Source of the DNA: Candidatus Hermodarchaeota archaeon
GTDB lineage: Archaea > Asgardarchaeota > Hermodarchaeia > Hermodarchaeales > Hermodarchaeaceae
Direction: 5' to 3'
DNA: 64,000 nt
Assembly (NCBI GenBank): GCA_016839805.1
Contig: JAEOTO010000006.1
Coordinates: forward strand, 72,751 to 136,750
Shown: piece by piece, positions 3,246 to 42,084 of the stretch
How positions within the stretch are numbered: position 1 is the stretch's first letter
Layout: every line of letters starts with the position of its first letter
Program-made: the position numbers and the translations under genes
Notes under the pieces: model-generated
What the model was told of the DNA's origin: nothing
Databases searched by the model: none
Seen by the model: the letters and a program-made list of their open reading frames with translations, nothing else

Positions 3246-3998
3246 TTAGAAATCGCGTAGAACGGTTTCGAAGATTTCGACTTGGTGTCCAAGAACTTTG
3301 GACCGTTTCTCTAATTTTGTTTTCCGAGACTTATAATCCGTTTCTTTGACTTCACCCACAGAGTGACGGGCATCTAAAAGCGATAATTCATCTCGGACTG
3401 CCTTATACTGAGCTTTGAGTAGTGCCAACCATTCACGGGCTATGACGACTTGTTCCTGATATTGAGCATCAGTTTCAGATTGGTTCTTCTTATACTCTTC
3501 CTGGAGCCGTAGATAGACACTTTCACGAACTTTGCCCTCCTCCTTAAGCCCCTCCAGTTTCTCAATCCGATCTTTCCATCGGTGGCGCTCCTTGCCTGCC
3601 TTTTCAAAATTAAATTCTTTGACCTTAGCTTTCAGTTTCTTTTCACGGGCCTTCAAAGCCTTAATCTTCTTTTGCAAAGGTTTGATTTCCTTTTCTAACT
3701 CAGCAATCGACCGATCGCCTTGCTCTAACTCTTTATCGAGCTTTTCTAATTCTTTAAGAAGCTCTGTTTCTTCTTCTTCCAAGCTCATTATTTCAGATCG
3801 AGCTTCCAACTGTCTAAGCACTTCGGCAGGCACTTCAGTAACAGGCTCTCGATCTGGCACCACAGGTACTGCCCGACTAGTAGTCACTGGGCGAGATACC
3901 GGAGTCGACACAGATGGACCTAATTTGGCACCGCAATATTTACAAAACTTCGCTGAATCCTTCACCGATTGCCCGCAGTTAGAACATATACGTGGCAT
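3246..3998 (-). CDS. zinc-ribbon + CdvA-like coiled-coil protein
   Basis: N-terminal CSNCG-x9-CKYCG ribbon; coiled coil with two SHOCT/CdvA-like motifs (LKEEGKVRESVY, ARHSVGEVKETDY). Confidence 0.7.
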   Translation of the reverse strand: MPRICSNCGQSVKDSAKFCKYCGAKLGPSVSTPVSRPVTTSRAVPVVPDREPVTEVPAEVLRQLEARSEIMSLEEEETELLKELEKLDKELEQGDRSIAELEKEIKPLQKKIKALKAREKKLKAKVKEFNFEKAGKERHRWKDRIEKLEGLKEEGKVRESVYLRLQEEYKKNQSETDAQYQEQVVIAREWLALLKAQYKAVRDELSLLDARHSVGEVKETDYKSRKTKLEKRSKVLGHQVEIFETVLRDF

Positions 3999-4143
3999 AC
4001 ACTCACCTGCCGAATCTCTTATAATTTCACACCTAAAATCCTTCGCTAACCCAAATTTTACATTACAAAAAATATCAAAATTTCCGTAAAGTATATGCCC
4101 ACGAAGTTAGCACCACTACATGAACATAAGAGGGACAGGAACG

Positions 4144-5034
4144 ATGCAATTCGATCTGTTTAGCTTCATCCTAACCTATTGGTGGATTATCGTAATCCTC
4201 GTCTTCATCATCATACTCCTTCTCATCGTCCCCTTCATCAAAATCCTCAAAGAGTACGAACGAGCCGTCATCTTCCGCCTCGGACGCGCCGTACCCGGCG
4301 TCAAAGGCCCCGGAGTTGTCATCCTACTACCAATTCTGGACAAAATGGTCAAAGTCGATCTCCGCGAACAATACTTCGAAATCGAACACCAACGCTGTAT
4401 CACCAGTGACAACGCCCCCGTCGACATCGACCTCCTCATCTACCACCGCGTCATCAACGCCCGAGACAGCGTCCTCCGCATCCGCGACTTCAGCGGCGCC
4501 GCCCTCGGCATCAGCCAAACCACCCTACGCGCCGTCGTCGGCGACATCACCCTCGACGACGTCCTCGCCAAACGCGAATACATCAACAGCATACTCCGAG
4601 AAAAACTCGACGAAAACACTGAGCCATGGGGTGTCAAAGTTACTAAGGTGGAAATCCGTGAGATTCTTCCTCCTACGAAGGTAAATGAGGCGATGATCAT
4701 GCAGATGGAAGCCGAGAGGCGACGTCGTGCTATGGTCACGGAGGCTGCGGGTAAACGTGAGGCGACGATTGCTGTTGCTGAGGGTGATAAGCGGTCTGCG
4801 ATTCTGAAAGCTGAGGGTGACAGGGAGGCTTCTATTCTTCGGGCTGAAGGTGAAGCGCTGGCTTTACAGAAGGTCTTCGATGTTGCGAAGGGTATTGATG
4901 AGAAGACAATGACGCTTCAGTACCTGAATACCTTACAGGTTATTGGCGCAAGTGAGAGTACGAAGTATGTGATTCCCATCGAGTTTACCCAGCTCATTTC
5001 GCCGATTCAAAAATTCTTGAAGGCTGTCAAGTAG
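4144..5034 (+). CDS. SPFH/band 7 (stomatin/slipin-like) membrane protein
   Basis: N-terminal TM, EYERAVIFRLG, QTTLRAVVG, WGVKVTKVEI, QMEAERRRRA, AEG repeats. Confidence 0.92.
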   Translation: MQFDLFSFILTYWWIIVILVFIIILLLIVPFIKILKEYERAVIFRLGRAVPGVKGPGVVILLPILDKMVKVDLREQYFEIEHQRCITSDNAPVDIDLLIYHRVINARDSVLRIRDFSGAALGISQTTLRAVVGDITLDDVLAKREYINSILREKLDENTEPWGVKVTKVEIREILPPTKVNEAMIMQMEAERRRRAMVTEAAGKREATIAVAEGDKRSAILKAEGDREASILRAEGEALALQKVFDVAKGIDEKTMTLQYLNTLQVIGASESTKYVIPIEFTQLISPIQKFLKAVK

Positions 5035-5100: not shown

Positions 5101-5412
5101 CTATTTGGCCGCGGCTTGAATCTTTTCCTTGGCTGTTTCTCGGGTATCGTTATCCAAGACAGTGGTGTAGGAGTCATAGCCAGGTAGGCCGGTGGTGATT
5201 TCTTCGATGAGGAGCATGAGGGCTTTTTCGGCATCAAGGTCCCGTACTTCAAGGCTGGCATCATCAAAGATGAAACTTGCTTCTTTCCATTTCCCTTCTC
5301 CGATTTGATACATCAAATACAGGTAATCATCAGTCATGAGTATGGCGGATTTGACTTTCCATGCTTCTTCTAAGATTTCGAGAGTTTTGTTGGCGTTCTC
5401 CTCTTTGCTCAT
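5101..5412 (-). CDS. hypothetical acidic protein
   Basis: 103-aa ORF with ATG, protein-like composition, no recognised motif. Confidence 0.7.
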   Translation of the reverse strand: MSKEENANKTLEILEEAWKVKSAILMTDDYLYLMYQIGEGKWKEASFIFDDASLEVRDLDAEKALMLLIEEITTGLPGYDSYTTVLDNDTRETAKEKIQAAAK

Positions 5413-5493
5413 GAGACATCACTTCAGTGTAAGTGTACTTTACATTGGCGCATAAAAATCCGGTGGTAAAAAAGTGGTGGTTCTTACAAGGAT

Positions 5494-6054
5494 TTAGGGT
5501 TTGATCCAGGAGAAAACGAAGTAGCGGATTTTCCCTTTTTCGGTGGAAGTGGCTAGGACAAATCGTTTCCGTACGGAGGTGGCGAGTCGACCAGCACGGA
5601 CAACTTCGATGGCTGAGACTTCATCGGATTTCGCAATTACCTCGACGATGAAAAGCGAATGATCGATACCCGGACCTTGCCGGTAAACTGCAAAATCTGC
5701 TCCAAATTTGAGTCCCGGGCGAACGACGAATCCGCGTTTTCTGAGGTCCTCATACACCTGGTACTTCCGACTGAAATCTTGATGGTGCTCCTCAGCGATG
5801 GCAATTAGTCTCCTTTCGTCTAATGGAGCTTTAGGGTCCTCTATGAATATCTCGATGGTGCCCTTACGAAGTAGGTGAAGAGCTTCGAAGAAGGATAGTT
5901 GGGAGGGGCGGTCGAATTCAGTGGTTTTAGGCTTTCGAATGCCAAGTGGTTTGCCATAGAATCCATTGCTATATAGCTTTGAACCGTCTGCGGGGTCCCA
6001 GACAATGACTTTGTTTTCTACAATTTGGGTTGGAATACGTTGCGTGGCTGGCAT
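5494..6054 (-). CDS. endA: tRNA-intron (splicing) endonuclease, catalytic subunit
   Basis: VYEDLRKRGFVVRPGLKFGADFAVY...GPGIDHS...TSVRK: Tyr/His/Lys triad present. Confidence 0.93.
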   Translation of the reverse strand: MPATQRIPTQIVENKVIVWDPADGSKLYSNGFYGKPLGIRKPKTTEFDRPSQLSFFEALHLLRKGTIEIFIEDPKAPLDERRLIAIAEEHHQDFSRKYQVYEDLRKRGFVVRPGLKFGADFAVYRQGPGIDHSLFIVEVIAKSDEVSAIEVVRAGRLATSVRKRFVLATSTEKGKIRYFVFSWIKP

Positions 6055-10508: not shown

Positions 10509-11759
10509 CTAAGACTTAGGTGTTGAACCTTCAACAAGGACTGTCTGTACTGCTTCGGGAAACTCGATAGTGATGTCATTTCGAGTCACCTTTGATAACG
10601 ACTTTTGAAGACGTTTTTGAAGAGTCTTCAGCTGTGAAGAAATCCTTTTGATTTGTTCTTTATTATGAGTTAATTCCGATTTTACATCGCGATGTTCCCA
10701 TTGCGCCCGTTCTAATGACTTTTCTAATTCCCGCCGCTCATCAGAAGACACTGAAGCTTTCAAATCGGTTTTCCGTGACTCAAGATTAGTAAAACGATGC
10801 CGATACTCATCCAATGACCCTTTCTCACATATCTCCTCTTTACGCTCCAACACTTTCCTTTCTAAGCTAGCTTTAAATTTGATTTTACTCCCTTGCAAAG
10901 CTTCTGCCAAGGCCCTCAATCCCGCCTTTAATTTCTCCAAGGATTCTGTATCATTTTGAAAAGCCTGCCACGGATCTGCCGAATATGCATCAGCTCCTTC
11001 ACCTGCTGTTGATGAAATCATCACAGCTCGTCCAGCAGCTTGACTTAATTTCTTGAACGGTTTTTTCAAAAAGTTCAGCTGGTTGGTGACAATCATCCGA
11101 ACGCTGTCAATTTCCTTCCCAATCCCATCAATCTCATCCAGCCCTGAATCCATACGAAACTGCTCAATATCCCCCTTCTGTTCCTCAATCTTTCCTACCT
11201 TTTCCTCCTCCACCTTTTCAAGCTCAGACAATTGCTCTACCAACGACAATAACTGACGAGACCTGTACTCAATCTCCTCTACTTCTCCCCCAATCTGATC
11301 CAATTGCTTCGGTACCTTTTCCTTCTCCCAAATCTTTCGAATCTTCTGGTAACTCTGTCCCACCACCCGAAACTGGTAATCAAACTCTTTGACAATCTTC
11401 TTATGGACTTTTGGCAACCGCGGAATATACCGTCTTCCAGCATCCGTAGCTTCGCGCAAATAGTCCTCTAAATCATCTAACAATTCCTGAACCGACGAAT
11501 AGATAATTTCTTCAGGAATCATCATATCTTCAGCAATACTCTTTAACCGACTTGACAACTTTGCCGCGGCTCCAGGCACTGTCAACTCTCCATCAATTAC
11601 AACTTCTGCTAAAAGTTGATCCGAGGTTTCTACCGTCTTCGCCAAAGCGCCTTCAATCCGATCAGTTTGACGTTTAATGTCCGATCGATAGTTAAAGAGC
11701 AGCTCCTCAGCCCGCTTTTCAAACCATTCCGGTAATTCATATACACCAATCGAAGTCAC
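10509..11759 (-). CDS. coiled-coil hypothetical protein
   Basis: 416 aa, E/K/L-rich heptads, GTG after GAGG. Confidence 0.8.
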   Translation of the reverse strand: MTSIGVYELPEWFEKRAEELLFNYRSDIKRQTDRIEGALAKTVETSDQLLAEVVIDGELTVPGAAAKLSSRLKSIAEDMMIPEEIIYSSVQELLDDLEDYLREATDAGRRYIPRLPKVHKKIVKEFDYQFRVVGQSYQKIRKIWEKEKVPKQLDQIGGEVEEIEYRSRQLLSLVEQLSELEKVEEEKVGKIEEQKGDIEQFRMDSGLDEIDGIGKEIDSVRMIVTNQLNFLKKPFKKLSQAAGRAVMISSTAGEGADAYSADPWQAFQNDTESLEKLKAGLRALAEALQGSKIKFKASLERKVLERKEEICEKGSLDEYRHRFTNLESRKTDLKASVSSDERRELEKSLERAQWEHRDVKSELTHNKEQIKRISSQLKTLQKRLQKSLSKVTRNDITIEFPEAVQTVLVEGSTPKS

Positions 11760-11922
11760 ACTGATATCCTCGCCTCACAAATCAGAAACAAGTATTAAAA
11801 AAACTACCTCAAAGAGAACCTTATACACCCCTACTACACCAAGCAATCCGCCAAAAAGCTTATCAGCGCCCTCCCATAGTCAACAATAGCAGAACCAACG
11901 CATCCTGGGATGTGAGCGGGCA

Positions 11923-12813
11923 ATTATCCATAACGCAATACTTTTCACCATCAGCCCTCGCACAGACGAAGTCGGACTCCAAGCCAACGTCATCTTCCGC
12001 AAACAATACTGGCGCGTCGCCCTCAACGACGACATGATCCGCGAATTCCTCCGCGCCTACAAAGAATTCATGAGCCACGTCCAAAGTACCGACATCCCCA
12101 CCCTCCCCATCCACATCCAAGGCGCCAAATACATCTTCACCAACATCGAAGACCTCCTCCTCGTCTTCATCAGCCACATGCAAGACGAAGACAACCGCGT
12201 CGCCGAAAAAGTCAAAACCGCCCTCCGCATGCTCGTCGGCAAATACGGCACCGAACACATCAAAGAACTCGGCAACAACGACACCGCCGAACCCATCGAA
12301 GACCTCATTGACAACTACATCATGAGCAAACTCAAAGTCAGCCTCGTCGGCGAAGGCGGCGTCGGCAAAACCACCCTCCTCCGCCTCCTCAAAGGCAGCG
12401 CCCCACCCACCGAATACGTCCCCACCATCGCTCTCAGCATCGAACAAATCGAAGCCACCCGCTACGGAACCTACTCAATAATTTTATGGGACTTCGCAGG
12501 ACAAGAGCGGTTTCGCCGGCTCTGGACCATTTATTTCAGGGGCTCAGACATCGTATTCATCATCACCGACTCCACCCTCAACAACGTCATTGCCACAAAA
12601 GAAATCCTAGATGTCATCCGAAAAGACGCACCGGGTGTCCCTGTCTGGGCGATTGCCAACAAACAAGACCTCGAAGGCGCCCTCAGCCCCGAACTCGTCG
12701 AACGCATCCTCGGCATCCCCGCCTTCGGCATGGTCGCCATCGACCAAACCCGCAAAGAAGAAATGCTCCAAATTTTGCTCGATGCCGTCGATCGCTACAT
12801 CGGGACGGAATAA
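11923..12813 (+). CDS. longin-like domain + Arf-like small GTPase fusion
   Basis: G1 GEGGVGKTT, G2 YVPTI, G3 WDFAGQERFR, G4 NKQD. Frame is open upstream of track ATG 12034 to a TAG at 11887; IIHNAILF...KQYW aligns with MIHNVFIM...RQYW of the paralog at 17120, so the start is placed at ATT 11923. Confidence 0.85.
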   Translation: MIHNAILFTISPRTDEVGLQANVIFRKQYWRVALNDDMIREFLRAYKEFMSHVQSTDIPTLPIHIQGAKYIFTNIEDLLLVFISHMQDEDNRVAEKVKTALRMLVGKYGTEHIKELGNNDTAEPIEDLIDNYIMSKLKVSLVGEGGVGKTTLLRLLKGSAPPTEYVPTIALSIEQIEATRYGTYSIILWDFAGQERFRRLWTIYFRGSDIVFIITDSTLNNVIATKEILDVIRKDAPGVPVWAIANKQDLEGALSPELVERILGIPAFGMVAIDQTRKEEMLQILLDAVDRYIGTE

Positions 12814-13003
12814 AGACTATCACTTTAATTCAGACTAGTCACTTGTTTCATGTAATTCTCCCAAGTACTCCGATAGAAATTCTAAGCGCATGTCTTGATC
12901 AGGCTTGGGTCATGGTCTTCCATCGTTGCGTAGGTTAAGCGGTGAACGCTTTTGTGTTGCCTCCTGCCATCAAGTTATAAGTTGGAACTTGAAAGGTAAC
13001 TTT

Positions 13004-13360
13004 GTGACTGATCCGATGATTGTTTATTGTGGTCTTAACTGCAGTGAATGCCCTGCCTTTATTGCTTATCAAACTGATGATGATGCATTACGGAAAGAAA
13101 CGGCGAAAAAGTGGTCAACACCGGATCATCCGGTTTCTGTTGAAGACATAAATTGTATGGGATGCAAATCAACGGAACCTCCTATCCATAGTTTTTGTTC
13201 AAAATGTGAAGTCCGAAGTTGTGCCATTGAACATGAGGTCGAAACTTGTACCCATTGCCCAGAATACTCTTGTGAAAAACTCGATAAAATAATCGAAATG
13301 GTTGGCGATGAAGCAAGAAATCGACTCGAAAACATACGGAAACAGTTGTCTAAATCCTAA
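13004..13360 (+). CDS. DUF3795-like Cys-rich protein
   Basis: YCGLNCSECP, CMGC, CSKCEVRSCA, CTHCPEYSC; GTG 13004 after AAGGT. Confidence 0.85.
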   Translation: MTDPMIVYCGLNCSECPAFIAYQTDDDALRKETAKKWSTPDHPVSVEDINCMGCKSTEPPIHSFCSKCEVRSCAIEHEVETCTHCPEYSCEKLDKIIEMVGDEARNRLENIRKQLSKS

Positions 13361-13504
13361 ATTTGTTACCGAAAAAAACTGCTGAACTATTTGAGAGGAA
13401 GCCTTGTTGTTTGGGTGCTCTTTTTTCGGATTGGTTTATTCGAAATGAATTTTATTGGCTAATAGGTGCGTCTTCTGAATTCGAAACGTGGAGAATGTAT
13501 AAAG

Positions 13505-13921
13505 ATGGAACCAAGTAGGCTGGCTCGTCGGCTTGGAATGGCACTGATTGCCTGGAGTATTACAAGTATTGTTATTGGTTTGGTGTTACTGTTTGTTCCG
13601 ATTAGTGTGCTTCAGGGGATTGGTCTACAAGCATTGCTGTGGGGTATTATTGATGCTATAATCGCGGTGGTGGGGGTCTTCAGGAAGCAGGAGCAATCAG
13701 CGGACAAAGCGACGCGGTTTCTGAGAATTAACGTGTTTTTGGATGTCGGCTATCAGCTTGTGGGAATTCTGTTGATTGTGTTTTTGTGGCAAGATGCGTT
13801 CCTGTTAGGGAATGGGATTGGTATCATAATCCAAGGGGCGTTTTTGTTCGTATTGGATCTGTACTTTTACCGAAAATTTAGAAACATGGACATATCTACG
13901 CCTTCAAATAATGGAATGTGA
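13505..13921 (+). CDS. 4-TM membrane protein (DUF6992-like)
   Basis: WGIIDAIIA, INVFLDVGY, GIIIQGAFLFVLD; four hydrophobic segments. Confidence 0.7.
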   Translation: MEPSRLARRLGMALIAWSITSIVIGLVLLFVPISVLQGIGLQALLWGIIDAIIAVVGVFRKQEQSADKATRFLRINVFLDVGYQLVGILLIVFLWQDAFLLGNGIGIIIQGAFLFVLDLYFYRKFRNMDISTPSNNGM

Positions 13922-17119: not shown

Positions 17120-17989
17120 ATGATTCACAACGTCTTCATCATGACCCGCGAAGGACGCATGGCCTTCCACCGTCAATACTGGTCCGTCGATATCACCACC
17201 GAAGATCGACAAGAATTCGTCGCCACTTACAAACACTTCGAAAAAGACCTCGGAGCCACCGTCGACCTCCCCATACATGTTAAAAACAACAAATTCATCT
17301 ACACCGATGCTGGCACTCACCTCCTCCTCGTTTTCGCCGTTGACATCTCCGACGAAGACGAAAAAATCCGAGAACTCCTCAAAAAAACTCGCGAACTCCT
17401 CATCGACAAATACGGTCACGAAATCGACGCCTACATCCAAAAACCCGCTCCCCTAGGCCAAGCCTTCCAAGGCTTCGAAAAAGAACTCGACAGCGTCATC
17501 GTCACCATGCTCAAAATCTGCCTCCTTGGTCAAGGTGGCGTCGGCAAATCCACCATGCTCAAACTACTAACCGCCGACAGCATCCCCGGCGAATACTACC
17601 CCACCATCGCCGTCGACATCGAAACCCTCCAAGGCGTGCGCTTTGGCCCCTACGAACTCGCCGTCTGGGACTTCGCAGGACAAGACCGCTTCCGCTCCCT
17701 CTGGAACTACTACCTCCGGAACGCAGACGCCGTCTTACTCGTCACCGATTCCACCTTGAAAAATGTCTTAGAAACCCGTGATATTTTAGAAATCGTCCGC
17801 AAGAATGCACCCGCCTGCATTGCCTGGGCCATTGCCAACAAACAAGACCTCCCCGGCGCCCTCGCCCCCAAACTCGTCCAACGCATCCTCGGCGTCCAAG
17901 CCTACGGCCTCGTCGCCATCGACCCTCGCTATCGCGAAACCCTCTACAAAATCATCCTCGGCGCCGTCGCTGAAGCCACCACCGATTAA
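17120..17989 (+). CDS. longin-like domain + Arf-like small GTPase fusion
   Basis: MIHNVFIMTREG longin-type start; GQGGVGKST, YYPTI, WDFAGQDRFR, NKQDL. Confidence 0.9.
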   Translation: MIHNVFIMTREGRMAFHRQYWSVDITTEDRQEFVATYKHFEKDLGATVDLPIHVKNNKFIYTDAGTHLLLVFAVDISDEDEKIRELLKKTRELLIDKYGHEIDAYIQKPAPLGQAFQGFEKELDSVIVTMLKICLLGQGGVGKSTMLKLLTADSIPGEYYPTIAVDIETLQGVRFGPYELAVWDFAGQDRFRSLWNYYLRNADAVLLVTDSTLKNVLETRDILEIVRKNAPACIAWAIANKQDLPGALAPKLVQRILGVQAYGLVAIDPRYRETLYKIILGAVAEATTD

Positions 17990-17997
17990 ACAGTGAA

Positions 17998-18531
17998 TTA
18001 TCCCTTTTTTAGCTGGTTTCGTTTTAATTGGATACCTACCATAGGAATTATGGTGATAGTTCCCATTAAAAGAAATACGGCTGCAGATAAAACATATGGA
18101 GTTAGTAACATCAGGAGGGCTCCGGTCACAAAGACCATTATAATGATCAGCATGGCTGCGATCCAAAACCCCGGGAGTTCATGCTTGGACACATACTGCA
18201 TTCGCCATAACGCCCAAACCAGATGAACCACGGCAAACATGACAAACCACCCTAGAATATAATCCAACCACGGAATCACATCCATCGGTAACCATCCATA
18301 CGCAACCCATGAATACGGGCTCAACAAAATAAAAGCTCCAGATACAAGAGCCCCTCCAATCCATGTAGCTAGAGCCAACGGCACAAACAACCATTTACTC
18401 CACCTTTCCACCTCCCTCCCGCCCAACGTCGGTCGAAGTAACCAATTAACCCACAAAGTAAACCCCCAACTCCCAAGTAAAATACAAACAAATGGAAGAA
18501 AGAACGTTAAACCCGGAATCACATTCAACAT
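17998..18531 (-). CDS. multi-pass membrane protein
   Basis: 177 aa, about 5 hydrophobic segments, AGGAG upstream. Confidence 0.75.
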   Translation of the reverse strand: MLNVIPGLTFFLPFVCILLGSWGFTLWVNWLLRPTLGGREVERWSKWLFVPLALATWIGGALVSGAFILLSPYSWVAYGWLPMDVIPWLDYILGWFVMFAVVHLVWALWRMQYVSKHELPGFWIAAMLIIIMVFVTGALLMLLTPYVLSAAVFLLMGTITIIPMVGIQLKRNQLKKG

Positions 18532-18767
18532 CTCCTGAAACCAATTTCTATTCCTTCATTCAAATATCCGTTGGTGTCGACAATTCAACCTAGTAAAACA
18601 GTTCTTATCCCGTTTAGATAAAGAAAGCAGCAACGAATATACACGAAACGGCAACGACGACAAACAAGTTAAATACGGGAAATCCGATAGTCAAAACGAA
18701 GTGCCAATAGGTCACTTTAAGTAATAAAGCTACAGGAAACTTTTAACCAAACGGGAGGCTAAAAGAA

Positions 18768-20345
18768 TTGCCACGTGGTTTATCAGTCTGCAGGTGGGAC
18801 GATAAAGTTGGCCTGCGTATTGTGGGTGTGTACCCGCGGAACCTAGAGGTTTCTGAGGATGATATGTTACGTGTTTTTACGGCGCACGCTATGGGTAAGC
18901 CGGAAGCTGGTTTTCTCACTATGACTCTTGAAGGAACGAACCTGGCGGTAGCGTCTTTTTACACTGGCATTCTCCGTGGGCGTGATCAGTTTTGTATTAT
19001 GATGTTTATGGATTTGGATGAAGAACCGCGGAGTTTTGAAGAGGGGTTGACGCTTGCGTCGAGTGAGATTGTGGAGAATATTGGTGAGCCGGAGTTTGTT
19101 GAGTATCTGGGTGAAGTGTTTGAGAAGCTGAAGCGGATGGTGGAGCTGTCCGTGGAGCAGCGGCTTGCTAAGGTGTTTGTGGATCAGGAAACGCGGTTGT
19201 TGATGCATAAGTTGGCTCGTGGTGGTATTTCCGCAGAAGAGCTCCGGGAATGGCTTGAGTTACAGACAGGGAAGCATTACCCCGATTTAGGGCTAGTAAC
19301 TCTGCCTTTGTTACGAAGTGGACTAGTGGAAGAGGATTGGATTAACGCGGTGTCAGACAACTGTGTCTTTCTAGTAAACGATTTGTTGGGTGCACGGTTT
19401 CCGCCAGAGCAGGTGATTAAACTTGCTAAAGGTGGCGGGTTAAACAAGGAGCAATACAACGAATTAGAAACGCGTGTGAAGAGTTTCTTTGAGGGTTATC
19501 AGTGGACTGAAGAAGATACGATTATTATTGGTCAGTTGCTGCTAGATCCGGATATTTATGACGTGACGAAGACGTTACGGCGGAAAATTGCGCATAAATC
19601 CGAGTTGGCGGGAGTGGTCGAAAAGGAAGCATCATTGGATAATGTGCTTCGACGTCTAGAGCAGGTACAAGTGATTACGAAATTTGGTGAAAATGCTGTT
19701 GACGTAGCTGCTAACGACGATCCGTTGATTGTGTTAATGGCGGATGTACACTTTGAGTCTTTCTTCCCGGAATTTCTAGTATTGCGTATTCAGGAACGGT
19801 TAGAGGCTAAGGATATTCATCCGGATATTGCGAAGCGGCATCTAGAGTTGCTTAGTGAAATGTATATGCGTATGCGAGAGAAGATGAAAGAACGCAAGAA
19901 GCGAAAGAAGGAAGAGGAAGAAGAGGAACTTCCTGAAATCGAAGCTGAAATGGTTCACCCGCCCGAAGTCGCTGAGGAGGAACCTCTAGAAACCGCTGAA
20001 ATGCCTCCACTTGACGAAAAAGAAGCGAAACGCATTCGAAAAGAGGAGGAGAAAGCACGTAAGGAAGAGGAAAAACGTCTAAAAGTCGAGGAGAAGAAGC
20101 GGAAGAAGGAAGAGGCGCAAAAGAAGAAGGAAGAGGAGAAGCAGAAGAAAGAGGAAGAGAAGCGTCGCAAGGAAGAGGAGAAGCAGAAGAAGGAAGAGGC
20201 GCAAAAGAAGAAGGAAGAGGAGAAGCAGAAGAAAGAGGAAGAGAAGCGTCGCAAGGAAGAGGAGAAGCAGAAGAAAAAGGAAAAAGAGAAGAAGCAAAAA
20301 GAGGAAAAAAAGAAAGAAAAGGAACCTGAAGCTGAGGCTACCTAA
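18768..20345 (+). CDS. uDENN/longin-like protein with E/K-rich single-alpha-helix tail
   Basis: N-terminal RWDDKVG..I...YP motif as in uDENN/NPRL-type longins; possible wHTH segments; C-terminal KKEEEKQ heptads; TTG after GGAGG. Confidence 0.75.
   Translation: MPRGLSVCRWDDKVGLRIVGVYPRNLEVSEDDMLRVFTAHAMGKPEAGFLTMTLEGTNLAVASFYTGILRGRDQFCIMMFMDLDEEPRSFEEGLTLASSEIVENIGEPEFVEYLGEVFEKLKRMVELSVEQRLAKVFVDQETRLLMHKLARGGISAEELREWLELQTGKHYPDLGLVTLPLLRSGLVEEDWINAVSDNCVFLVNDLLGARFPPEQVIKLAKGGGLNKEQYNELETRVKSFFEGYQWTEEDTIIIGQLLLDPDIYDVTKTLRRKIAHKSELAGVVEKEASLDNVLRRLEQVQVITKFGENAVDVAANDDPLIVLMADVHFESFFPEFLVLRIQERLEAKDIHPDIAKRHLELLSEMYMRMREKMKERKKRKKEEEEEELPEIEAEMVHPPEVAEEEPLETAEMPPLDEKEAKRIRKEEEKARKEEEKRLKVEEKKRKKEEAQKKKEEEKQKKEEEKRRKEEEKQKKEEAQKKKEEEKQKKEEEKRRKEEEKQKKKEKEKKQKEEKKKEKEPEAEAT
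20103..20270 (+). repeat. two exact 84-bp tandem copies (KKEEAQK KKEEEKQ KKEEEKR RKEEEKQ)
   Basis: 20103-20186 equals 20187-20270; built from degenerate 21-bp units. Confidence 0.9.
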
Positions 20346-41387: not shown

Positions 41388-41556
41388 ATTCCTAAAAAAT
41401 ACCAGCTAGAAGGCTGTAACATGCCAAAAAAACGTTGTGAATCAACCTCGAGATTTTCATCTCAAAGGACTCGTCACCGAACAGTTTTTTAGCGTTTGTC
41501 CCTAAACTCAAAGTTAGAACCATCGGAAGCGTCAAACAGTGGAAGACGAAGGAATC

Positions 41557-42084
41557 ATGCTCAAACTCGTCGTCGCTGGCGAAGGCGGCGTCGGCAAAAC
41601 CACCCTCATCCGAAGATACGTCGAAGGCGTATTCCATGATTCCAAAATGACCGTAGGCGCAGGCTTTGCCGCAAAACGACTAATTATAAATGACGGACAT
41701 GGTCCCACCGCACTAAAGCTCCAGCTATGGGATTTTGGCGGCGAGAAACGCTTCAGGTTTTTGTTGCCGAAGTTTTGTTTGGGCTCACGGGGAGCGATGT
41801 TAGCCTTTGATTTGAACCGGTTTAGTACCTTTCTCAAAATAGACCAGTGGCTAGATTTGATTCGAGAAAATACCGAGGATATTCCAATCGTTTTGATTGG
41901 AATGAAGGCAGACCTTCAGCGGGCTGTGAATCAGAAGGAAGTTATTCAATTTGCGAAAAAGCATGGGTTGAAAGCGTATTTTGAGACGAGTTCTAAGAAT
42001 GATCTGAATGTGACTCCAGCCTTTGAGTATATTGCGAAACAGATGCTGGAGTATGTTCGGAATCGAATATCACAAGCCTCTTAA
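41557..42084 (+). CDS. Rab-like small GTPase
   Basis: GEGGVGKTT, MTVG, LQLWDFGGEKRFR, GMKAD, ETSSK; no C-terminal Cys. Confidence 0.92.
   Translation: MLKLVVAGEGGVGKTTLIRRYVEGVFHDSKMTVGAGFAAKRLIINDGHGPTALKLQLWDFGGEKRFRFLLPKFCLGSRGAMLAFDLNRFSTFLKIDQWLDLIRENTEDIPIVLIGMKADLQRAVNQKEVIQFAKKHGLKAYFETSSKNDLNVTPAFEYIAKQMLEYVRNRISQAS

Follow-up and report, generated by a model that had tools for sequence, protein, structure and literature searches.

The window analysed here, a stretch of 64,000 nucleotides (nt) from a Candidatus Hermodarchaeota archaeon (contig JAEOTO010000006.1, positions 72,751 to 136,750), carries a gene of the SPFH/Band 7 family whose third codon positions switch abruptly, in the middle of the gene, from C and A to G and T. 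This flip is the strongest member of a family-wide set of chiral skew pairs in Hermodarchaeota. What these pairs record is a process that is anchored at a point, chiral, exerted on the DNA itself, ongoing and lineage-specific, and that is also present at a proven homing site; we place high confidence in this description. The gene and its parts are the following:

4144..5034, + strand: SPFH/Band 7 (stomatin-family) gene, 296 amino acids (aa) from the ATG at 4144, intact and uninterrupted through the flip
4204..4617, + strand: left tract, A/C-rich, with a third-position keto (G+T) fraction of 0-0.2, C dominant and G absent
4617..4620, no strand: maximum-likelihood change point, between codons 158 and 159 (protein ...DEN/TEPWG...)
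4620..5034, + strand: right tract, G/T-rich, with a third-position keto fraction of 0.62-0.95

The encoded protein matches the Pfam family PF01145 over residues 34-203 with E=2.6e-32 and 112.7 bits (cut-off 23.6), and its hydrophobic N-terminus supplies the membrane anchor that, next to a PF01145 match above the gathering score, characterizes the family. When the third-position letters were counted in frame, the 80 codons of 4381-4620 gave C65, A12, T3 and G0, and the 80 codons of 4621-4860 gave G33, T31, A10 and C6. The hand counts of a preliminary description of this DNA, 77/80 C/A without any G followed by 64/80 G/T, were thereby reproduced exactly. Across the switch the keto fraction rises from 0.03 to 0.80 (D=0.78, with 80 third positions per side), which is the maximum of D in the genome (2.3 Mb, 50 contigs), where the standard deviation (SD) of D is 0.092. 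In 150-nt windows the left tract has a mean GC skew of -0.33 and a mean TA skew of -0.18, and the right tract a mean GC skew of +0.31. First positions in the left tract also avoid T, leucine being written CTC and serine AGC; taken together with the third-position bias, this means that G+T is kept minimal in the left tract wherever the protein permits. Apart from a single 12-nt direct repeat, we found no repeat, palindrome or inverted repeat at the change point.

A boundary sharp to one codon is what could be expected of a chimeric assembly, or of a recombinant with halves from donors of differing codon usage, and the contig ends of this genome are in fact slightly enriched in A/C (37/50 negative, p about 0.01-0.015), which points to some flips lying at assembly breaks elsewhere in the genome. 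At the SPFH gene, however, position 4620 is spanned by contigs of three other studies with 95-99% identity (covering 4582-4819, 4561-4724 and 4377-5016), no loose contig ends were found at 4620 among contigs from four metagenomes, and the flip recurs at this codon in about 20 independent metagenome-assembled genomes and metagenome contigs. In the source sample X1, contig cover ends at 4397, a gap to which no weight was given. The nearest relative is also the same for both halves of the gene. Using G000 for the genome under study and other G and L labels for relatives' genomes and loci, this relative is G013, at distances of 0.009 and 0.015 (codon positions 1+2) for the two halves, and the between-relative distances of the two halves correlate. 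A mosaic of donors would, in addition, leave the uniform handedness described below unexplained. The bridging contigs, the recurrence of the flip in relatives and the shared nearest relative lead us to reject a chimera or mosaic as far as the analysis allows, and we give this explanation next to no weight. Of the two observations that the preliminary description had named as fatal to its account, a read-pair or coverage discontinuity at about 4620 and differing phylogenetic origins of the halves, neither refuted it: independent contigs span the position, and the halves share their nearest relative at similar distance. Its further statement that the switch reflects neither codon optimisation of the gene nor an obvious fusion holds as well. 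The idea that contigs break at flip centres as a general rule was rejected, as only a weak tendency was seen. One such end may be mentioned for its own sake: the end of contig C32 (G000:C32:39936-40239), an actin fragment with a G/T-rich tract past its flip, overlaps the start of contig C9 (G000:C9:1-181) with 94% identity, which makes it probable that C32 and C9 are neighbours separated by an assembly break at the skew flip.

The SPFH orthologues are uninterrupted in 14 genomes of the same genus, in 4 of the sister genus and in metagenome contigs, and most of them flip alike. About 20 orthologues of the two genera have their flip at codons ~159-170; for the 14 with a strong signal, change points range over codons 139-170, with most at 159-168, in either genus. 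The strength of the flip varies, being extreme in G000, G013 and three genomes of the sister genus, and in the closely related orthologues L005 and L007 there is no flip although the protein is conserved. Left and right skew intensities are coupled across lineages (Spearman -0.65, the lineages not being independent). As third positions of the gene differ by 40-55% between species, the skew is not a frozen ancestral state and is maintained separately in each lineage. Divergence from the closest relative, G013, is nonetheless ordinary (0.13-0.14 at third positions of the SPFH gene vs 0.11-0.27 in the neighbouring genes), and this fits a bias in fixation or equilibrium better than a recent burst of mutation. 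A parsimony polarisation of the G000+G013 branch yielded too few usable sites, because synonymous sites are saturated between species. The surrounding gene order (polyferredoxin-like gene, Zn-ribbon coiled-coil, SPFH, orf103, EndA) is kept in both genera, as is the pairing of the SPFH gene with the divergent gene for a protein with a Zn-ribbon and a long coiled coil (3246-3998, - strand), from which it is separated by a spacer of 145 nt. No NfeD partner gene adjoins the SPFH gene. In some relatives a gene for a beta-propeller protein of about 630 aa (PF09826), which is not in G000, lies between the SPFH gene and the 103-aa open reading frame (ORF) (L032:6978-8864, L026:1356-3248, L108:889-2949). 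We had considered the insertion of about 2 kb downstream of the relatives' SPFH genes as a mobile element and rejected this, since the insertion is the beta-propeller gene.

The skew does not stop at the ends of the SPFH gene, as can be seen in its flanks:

3999..4143, no strand: upstream spacer, common to the SPFH gene and the divergent Zn-ribbon/coiled-coil gene, with A56 C37 G17 T35 and a keto fraction of 0.36
5101..6054, - strand: 103-aa ORF and tRNA-splicing endonuclease EndA (PF01974/PF02778), in the fading tail of the right tract

Intergenic keto fractions average 0.496 genome-wide (SD 0.056), so that the upstream spacer is A/C-rich like the left tract, and read on the + strand the two downstream minus-strand genes have third-position keto fractions (keto3) of 0.66 (5101-5412) and 0.63 (5494-6054). 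Throughout the genome, the composition of spacers follows the third-position skew that flanks them (r=0.36, p=1e-22, 706 spacers), and the coding-strand skews of adjacent genes correlate at about -0.2 for genes on opposite strands and at +0.29 for genes on the same strand. From an anchor the skew stays at a plateau for about 400-500 bp to either side and has faded by about 1.4 kb, whichever way the genes are oriented. The presence of the skew in spacers and in opposite-strand genes makes it a property of DNA strands, not of codons. Four-fold degenerate sites in extreme 40-codon blocks read C.77/A.17/G.02/T.04 in one class and, in near-complement, G.64/T.25/A.06/C.05 in the other, against A.30/C.23/G.15/T.31 in the rest of the genome, and their GC content rises from 0.38 to 0.7-0.8 in skewed tracts. 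First and second codon positions, as well as amino-acid usage, are also shifted in the extreme blocks. Counted on the coding strand, 59 of these blocks are A/C-rich and 20 are G/T-rich, and the A/C-rich ones are also the more extreme.

These observations bear on the possibility that the pattern is selected in the transcript, with a fast NNC/NNA half decoded by Watson-Crick pairing followed by a slow NNT/NNG half read by wobble for the sake of co-translational folding, or with the C/A and G/U stretches paired over a long range in the RNA. The order of the two classes within the gene and the conserved position of the switch near ...TEPWG... agree with such selection. It would nevertheless leave unaccounted for a skew that runs on into the spacer and, with + strand polarity, into genes of the opposite strand, and that also alters amino-acid usage and the other two codon positions, and the flip-free L005 and L007 encode the same conserved protein. 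We consider selection on the transcript very improbable. A hairpin of the C/A and G/U halves was rejected outright, the predicted fold of 4381-4860 being no more stable than that of shuffled sequences (z=-0.29).

To place the SPFH flip among other skews, we surveyed the genome and obtained about 100 windows of 300-1650 nt with |keto skew| > 0.28 and 246 skewed third-position patches, among which there are 21 pairs of an A/C with a G/T patch. Close pairs stand in the order A/C then G/T over the reverse order at a ratio of 9:1, and sharp flips number 10 up (A/C to G/T) and 0 down at D>=0.45, or 11:1 at D>=0.4. The A/C-left, G/T-right polarity pointed out in the preliminary description is thus systematic. 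Reading the opposite strand does not alter it, so the polarity is a genuine chirality: the strand whose 5' to 3' direction points at the centre is pushed at every free site to C and secondly to A, and the outgoing strand to G and secondly to T. Among the ten sharpest flips, six or seven are intragenic (SPFH, secY, an actin fragment, a Ras-like GTPase, a thiamine pyrophosphate (TPP) enzyme, a BPL_N protein and MCM) and one falls in a divergent promoter region. The gaps of 1-3 kb between A/C and G/T patches hold mostly ordinary genes (ATP synthase c repeats, SRAP, a GTPase, an SMC-like gene and one LAGLIDADG). Besides the SPFH flip, the window contains three others:

window 11700-13700, flip near 12771-12774: second skew pair, A/C over a minus-strand gene (mild) and a longin/Arf-like GTPase gene, then G/T over plus-strand genes
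window 17120-20345, flip near 18791-18794 in a divergent spacer: third skew pair
window 41539-42084, flip near 41715-41718: fourth, weaker mid-gene flip, in a Ras-family GTPase gene just ahead of the WDxxG (switch II) motif

In the second pair, the longin/Arf-like GTPase gene (12034-12813, + strand) is A/C throughout, with a keto3 of 0.13, and the tract starts almost at the start codon. In the third, a plus-strand gene (17120-17989, keto3 0.15) and the minus-strand gene beside it lie within the A/C tract, and the gene for a 525-aa protein at 18768-20345 is G/T up to 95%. The A/C-rich GTPase genes at 12034 and 17120 share 70% identity over 436 nt. Elsewhere in the genome, at G000:C21:143107-144999 (L159), a 631-aa ATP synthase c subunit with eight tandem PF00137 repeats is encoded by a gene with one end A/C-rich and the other G/T-rich, and at G000:C42:1084-3500 (L069) two LAGLIDADG ORFs adjoin the most extreme G/T tract of the genome, which is 1.5 kb long and reaches an all-position keto skew of up to +0.6.

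The same signature brackets an intein, in the following gene:

G000:C22:60072-63755 (L068/L076), - strand: MCM gene with an intein at residues ~406-937

On the + strand, MCM keto3 is 0-15% just left of the intein, neutral across the intein and 80-100% to its right. Intein-bearing alleles (G000, G011 and G005) are strongly skewed, and intein-free alleles show no skew (G002) or a mild one (G006). An intein at codon 348, where present, marks the end of the A/C tract, and in alleles with two inteins the left flank of the second is A/C-rich even where it is made of intein-1 sequence. At MCM, then, the signature is found at a proven homing site of the same genome and follows the element. The states that MCM alleles take in the genus (L068/L076, L077-L100), namely intein-free, with this intein after ~405, with a different insert at the same site, with an intein at ~348, or with both, indicate a very active turnover of inteins at this gene. 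Correctly skewed flanks were found at 5/15 intein/LAGLIDADG loci of G000. In other Asgard families, by comparison, MCM is without skew in 4/4 genes examined, including two that carry inserts, which calls for a factor specific to the lineage.

Two explanations that place the asymmetry in transcription or in replication have to be judged against this set. If divergent transcription or R-loops started from the flip point, the displaced non-template strand (+ on the right, - on the left) would gain C to T and A to G changes and become G/T-rich, so that geometric reasoning gives the correct sign for deamination of the displaced strand. Some tracts do start or stop at gene borders, and the A/C excess on the coding strand (59 vs 20 extreme blocks) suggests that transcription may modulate the effect. 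Against this, there is no TATA-like hexamer on either strand in 4450-4800, only one of the ten sharp flips lies in a divergent promoter region while six or seven are intragenic, neighbours on the opposite strand share the + strand polarity, and MCM would require outward promoters at both ends of its intein. The four-fold sites, furthermore, go to G or C with a large rise in GC, not to T. Such an origin of the skew seems to us unlikely. The composition of these sites also bears on the proposal of the preliminary description that exposed single-stranded DNA is deaminated: cytosine deamination should mainly raise T and lower GC, and a shift to C 0.77 or G 0.64, with GC going from 0.38 to 0.7-0.8, speaks against it, so that simple deamination fits poorly.

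Replication could act through local initiation points, either many origins or fixed starts of recombination-dependent replication, with the skew arising from the asymmetry of leading and lagging strands. The polarity is that of bacterial origins, whose leading strand is G/T-rich, and the handedness is uniform; moreover, outward 5' to 3' synthesis has the same geometry as break repair, and recombination-dependent starts are inseparable on present data from the reading that we favour. A skew of this kind should, however, persist to a terminus, and here it decays in about 0.5-1.4 kb, with four flips in 64 kb and dozens per 2.3 Mb. At MCM, the two halves are split by a compositionally neutral intein. 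Archaeal origins have ORB-type (origin recognition box) repeats, an AT-rich unwinding element and a long-range skew, usually lie by orc1/cdc6 and number one to few per genome. The SPFH site shows none of this: there are no repeats, inverted repeats or AT-rich unwinding block (AT content 52%), and its neighbours are the Zn-ribbon protein, the 103-aa ORF and EndA. We hold replication initiation to be decidedly unlikely, somewhat more so than transcription. The bidirectional origin put forward in the preliminary description is disfavoured by the same facts, namely at least four flips in the window, a skew that fades in about 0.5-1.4 kb and the lack of origin features. Its broader formulation, a point-anchored strand-specific process, remains the best description of the data, and among the causes it listed a recombination start site agrees best with the data, given that the MCM intein is flanked by the same signature.

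The reading we favour is that of a site-anchored process tied to recombination or break repair, in which mismatch resolution or repair synthesis is strand-asymmetric; we rate it a little short of an even chance. The anchor would be a site of recurrent recombinational repair, either a double-strand break or a start of strand exchange, and the asymmetry would come from the differing roles of the retained 3'-ended strand and of the strand that is resected and resynthesised or derived from the donor. After 5' to 3' resection the 3'-ended strands would be + on the left and - on the right, matching the C/A-rich strands. Skewed tracts are 0.3-1.6 kb long, which is the range of resection or conversion tracts. 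Two versions can be envisaged. In the first, repair synthesis would err mainly by G.T mispairs, so that the resynthesised strand gains G and T; errors of this type have also been proposed for GRINS, the skewed repeats discussed below (Nivina et al. 2021, PMC8256042). In the second, heteroduplex mismatches would be resolved with a base-specific bias, for which EndoMS/NucS is a candidate. This nuclease is encoded in the genome. It cuts G/T, G/G and T/T mismatches and hardly A/C, C/C and A/A (PMC4838380), and if recognised mismatches were resolved toward the donor and unrecognised ones were not, the retained 3'-ended strand would lose G+T on both sides, which would give the observed handedness. 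In mouse cells the geometry of a break is known to set a strand-biased resolution of mismatches (PMC9001825). A fixation bias of this sort, working on standing variation, could saturate synonymous sites with neither hypermutation nor raised divergence. The most specific form of the proposal, in which fixed hotspots of recombination initiation, some at intein homing sites and others element-free (SPFH codon ~160), each leave a chiral keto/amino footprint via EndoMS/NucS-type processing of heteroduplex, is in our view rather unlikely as a whole.

Several findings weigh against the tie to recombination or break repair. The textbook outcome of cytosine deamination in the single-stranded DNA of a resected break is a top strand with its C mutated on the left side (PMC6786661). 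The SPFH tract has the reverse sign, and the reading therefore needs a step that is less standard, be it a biased resolution of heteroduplex or synthesis errors of the G.T type. Asgard families without skew in MCM or SPFH also possess NucS, so we rejected it as the lineage-specific factor; it could at most be a component. No shared motif is visible at the centres of the ten sharp flips, YGTCWA-N11-TNGRCG included, most skewed patches have no mobile element nearby, and 10/15 intein/LAGLIDADG loci show no skew. At the SPFH site itself we found no inserted element, intein or nuclease gene, the neighbouring genes being ordinary and syntenic, and no allele with an insert at the flip appeared in 19 relatives, 47 genome loci, 54 metagenome loci and 35 longer homologues, a search that rare alleles could escape; the longer homologues are fusions with NfeD or a hydrolase only. 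Nor is the flip site the nucleotide-conservation maximum of the gene, standing only about 1 SD above the mean, and for this reason the idea of a conserved homology anchor was rejected. Some A/C tracts, finally, such as those of the GTPase genes at window 12034 and 17120, begin exactly at the gene starts, a hint of an additional gene-level or transcription-linked component.

Whatever its cause, the pattern testifies to a strong and unexplained evolutionary force that, within a few hundred bp of a fixed point, overrides the background mutation at free sites on one strand. It affects core genes (SPFH, secY, MCM, actin and small GTPases) in a lineage that is studied for its closeness to eukaryotes, and because it reshapes codon usage and amino-acid composition, codon-based conclusions about gene transfer, expression and phylogeny may be misled by it. 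The handedness and the link to an intein provide testable clues to recombination and mismatch repair in the mostly uncultured Asgard archaea. If the proposal of hotspots processed by NucS were true, the sequence itself could suffice to locate recombination hotspots in these relatives of eukaryotes, and the same mechanism could explain the GRINS skews of NucS-using Actinobacteria.

Among known systems, the switch of skew at bacterial and archaeal origins has the same A/C to G/T polarity and the same pairing of G with T, but it is a step of low amplitude over hundreds of kb, present 1-4 times per genome, whereas here dozens of 1-kb blips come near saturation. GC-biased gene conversion (PMC3649680) is likewise a local, recombination-linked bias of fixation that is able to push synonymous sites to extremes; in its classical form it is strand-symmetric and mainly eukaryotic, unlike the present case, where GC rises but G and C are split onto opposite strands. 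In the break-geometry mismatch resolution described by Pokusaeva et al. (2022, PMC9001825) the favoured strand depends on the side of the break. The single-switch clusters of yeast at resected breaks, caused by APOBEC or damage to single-stranded DNA (Sakofsky et al. 2019, PMC6786661), are also opposite tracts centred on a point, with one handedness that comes from 5' to 3' resection. They differ in that they are single events, touch all codon positions and lose C on the left of the top strand, where the SPFH tract is C-saturated, and the Hermodarchaeota pattern, unlike them, has passed through the filter of selection, is saturated and has been kept up over evolutionary time.

The closest published phenomenon to the SPFH flip is that of GRINS, coding regions with intense GC and TA skews that are positively correlated, for which the cause is stated to be unknown (Nivina et al. 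2021, PMC8256042). Like the SPFH tract, GRINS have a G+T vs C+A skew in functional coding sequence, strongest at third positions and accompanied by shifted amino-acid usage, with abrupt changes between G+T-rich and C+A-rich stretches within 1 kb. They have been linked to gene conversion and occur often in recombination genes, transposases and endonucleases (PMC8256042). Unlike the SPFH gene, they are defined as repeats, with copies >80% identical, and were described in bacteria, mainly in polyketide synthase genes of Streptomyces, single-copy skewed regions being mentioned in passing (PMC8256042). By the length and intensity that define GRINS (>500 bp and mean absolute GC and TA skew > 0.15, in 150-nt windows with a 30-nt step), the SPFH gene, with 891 nt and a mean |GC skew| of 0.29, would be included, its mean |TA skew| of 0.150 being borderline (left 0.18, right 0.06). 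The two skews are correlated, as they are in GRINS (Pearson r 0.49 within SPFH vs 0.11 in the whole window), and third positions are 96% C/A and then 80% G/T. As to duplication, a blastn search of the SPFH gene against the assembly returned the self hit only, with no copy at >80% DNA identity, and non-self hits were obtained for 8/246 skewed patches vs 2/246 controls, so that 238/246 lie outside the repeat definition of GRINS. With respect to the available parts of the GRINS paper, what is new is the uniform handedness, the switch conserved at one codon in two genera, an intein flanked by the two tracts, skew in DNA present as a single copy, and a presence in Asgard archaea. These features extend the phenomenon to single-copy genes and to archaea while adding to it a handedness and an anchor point.

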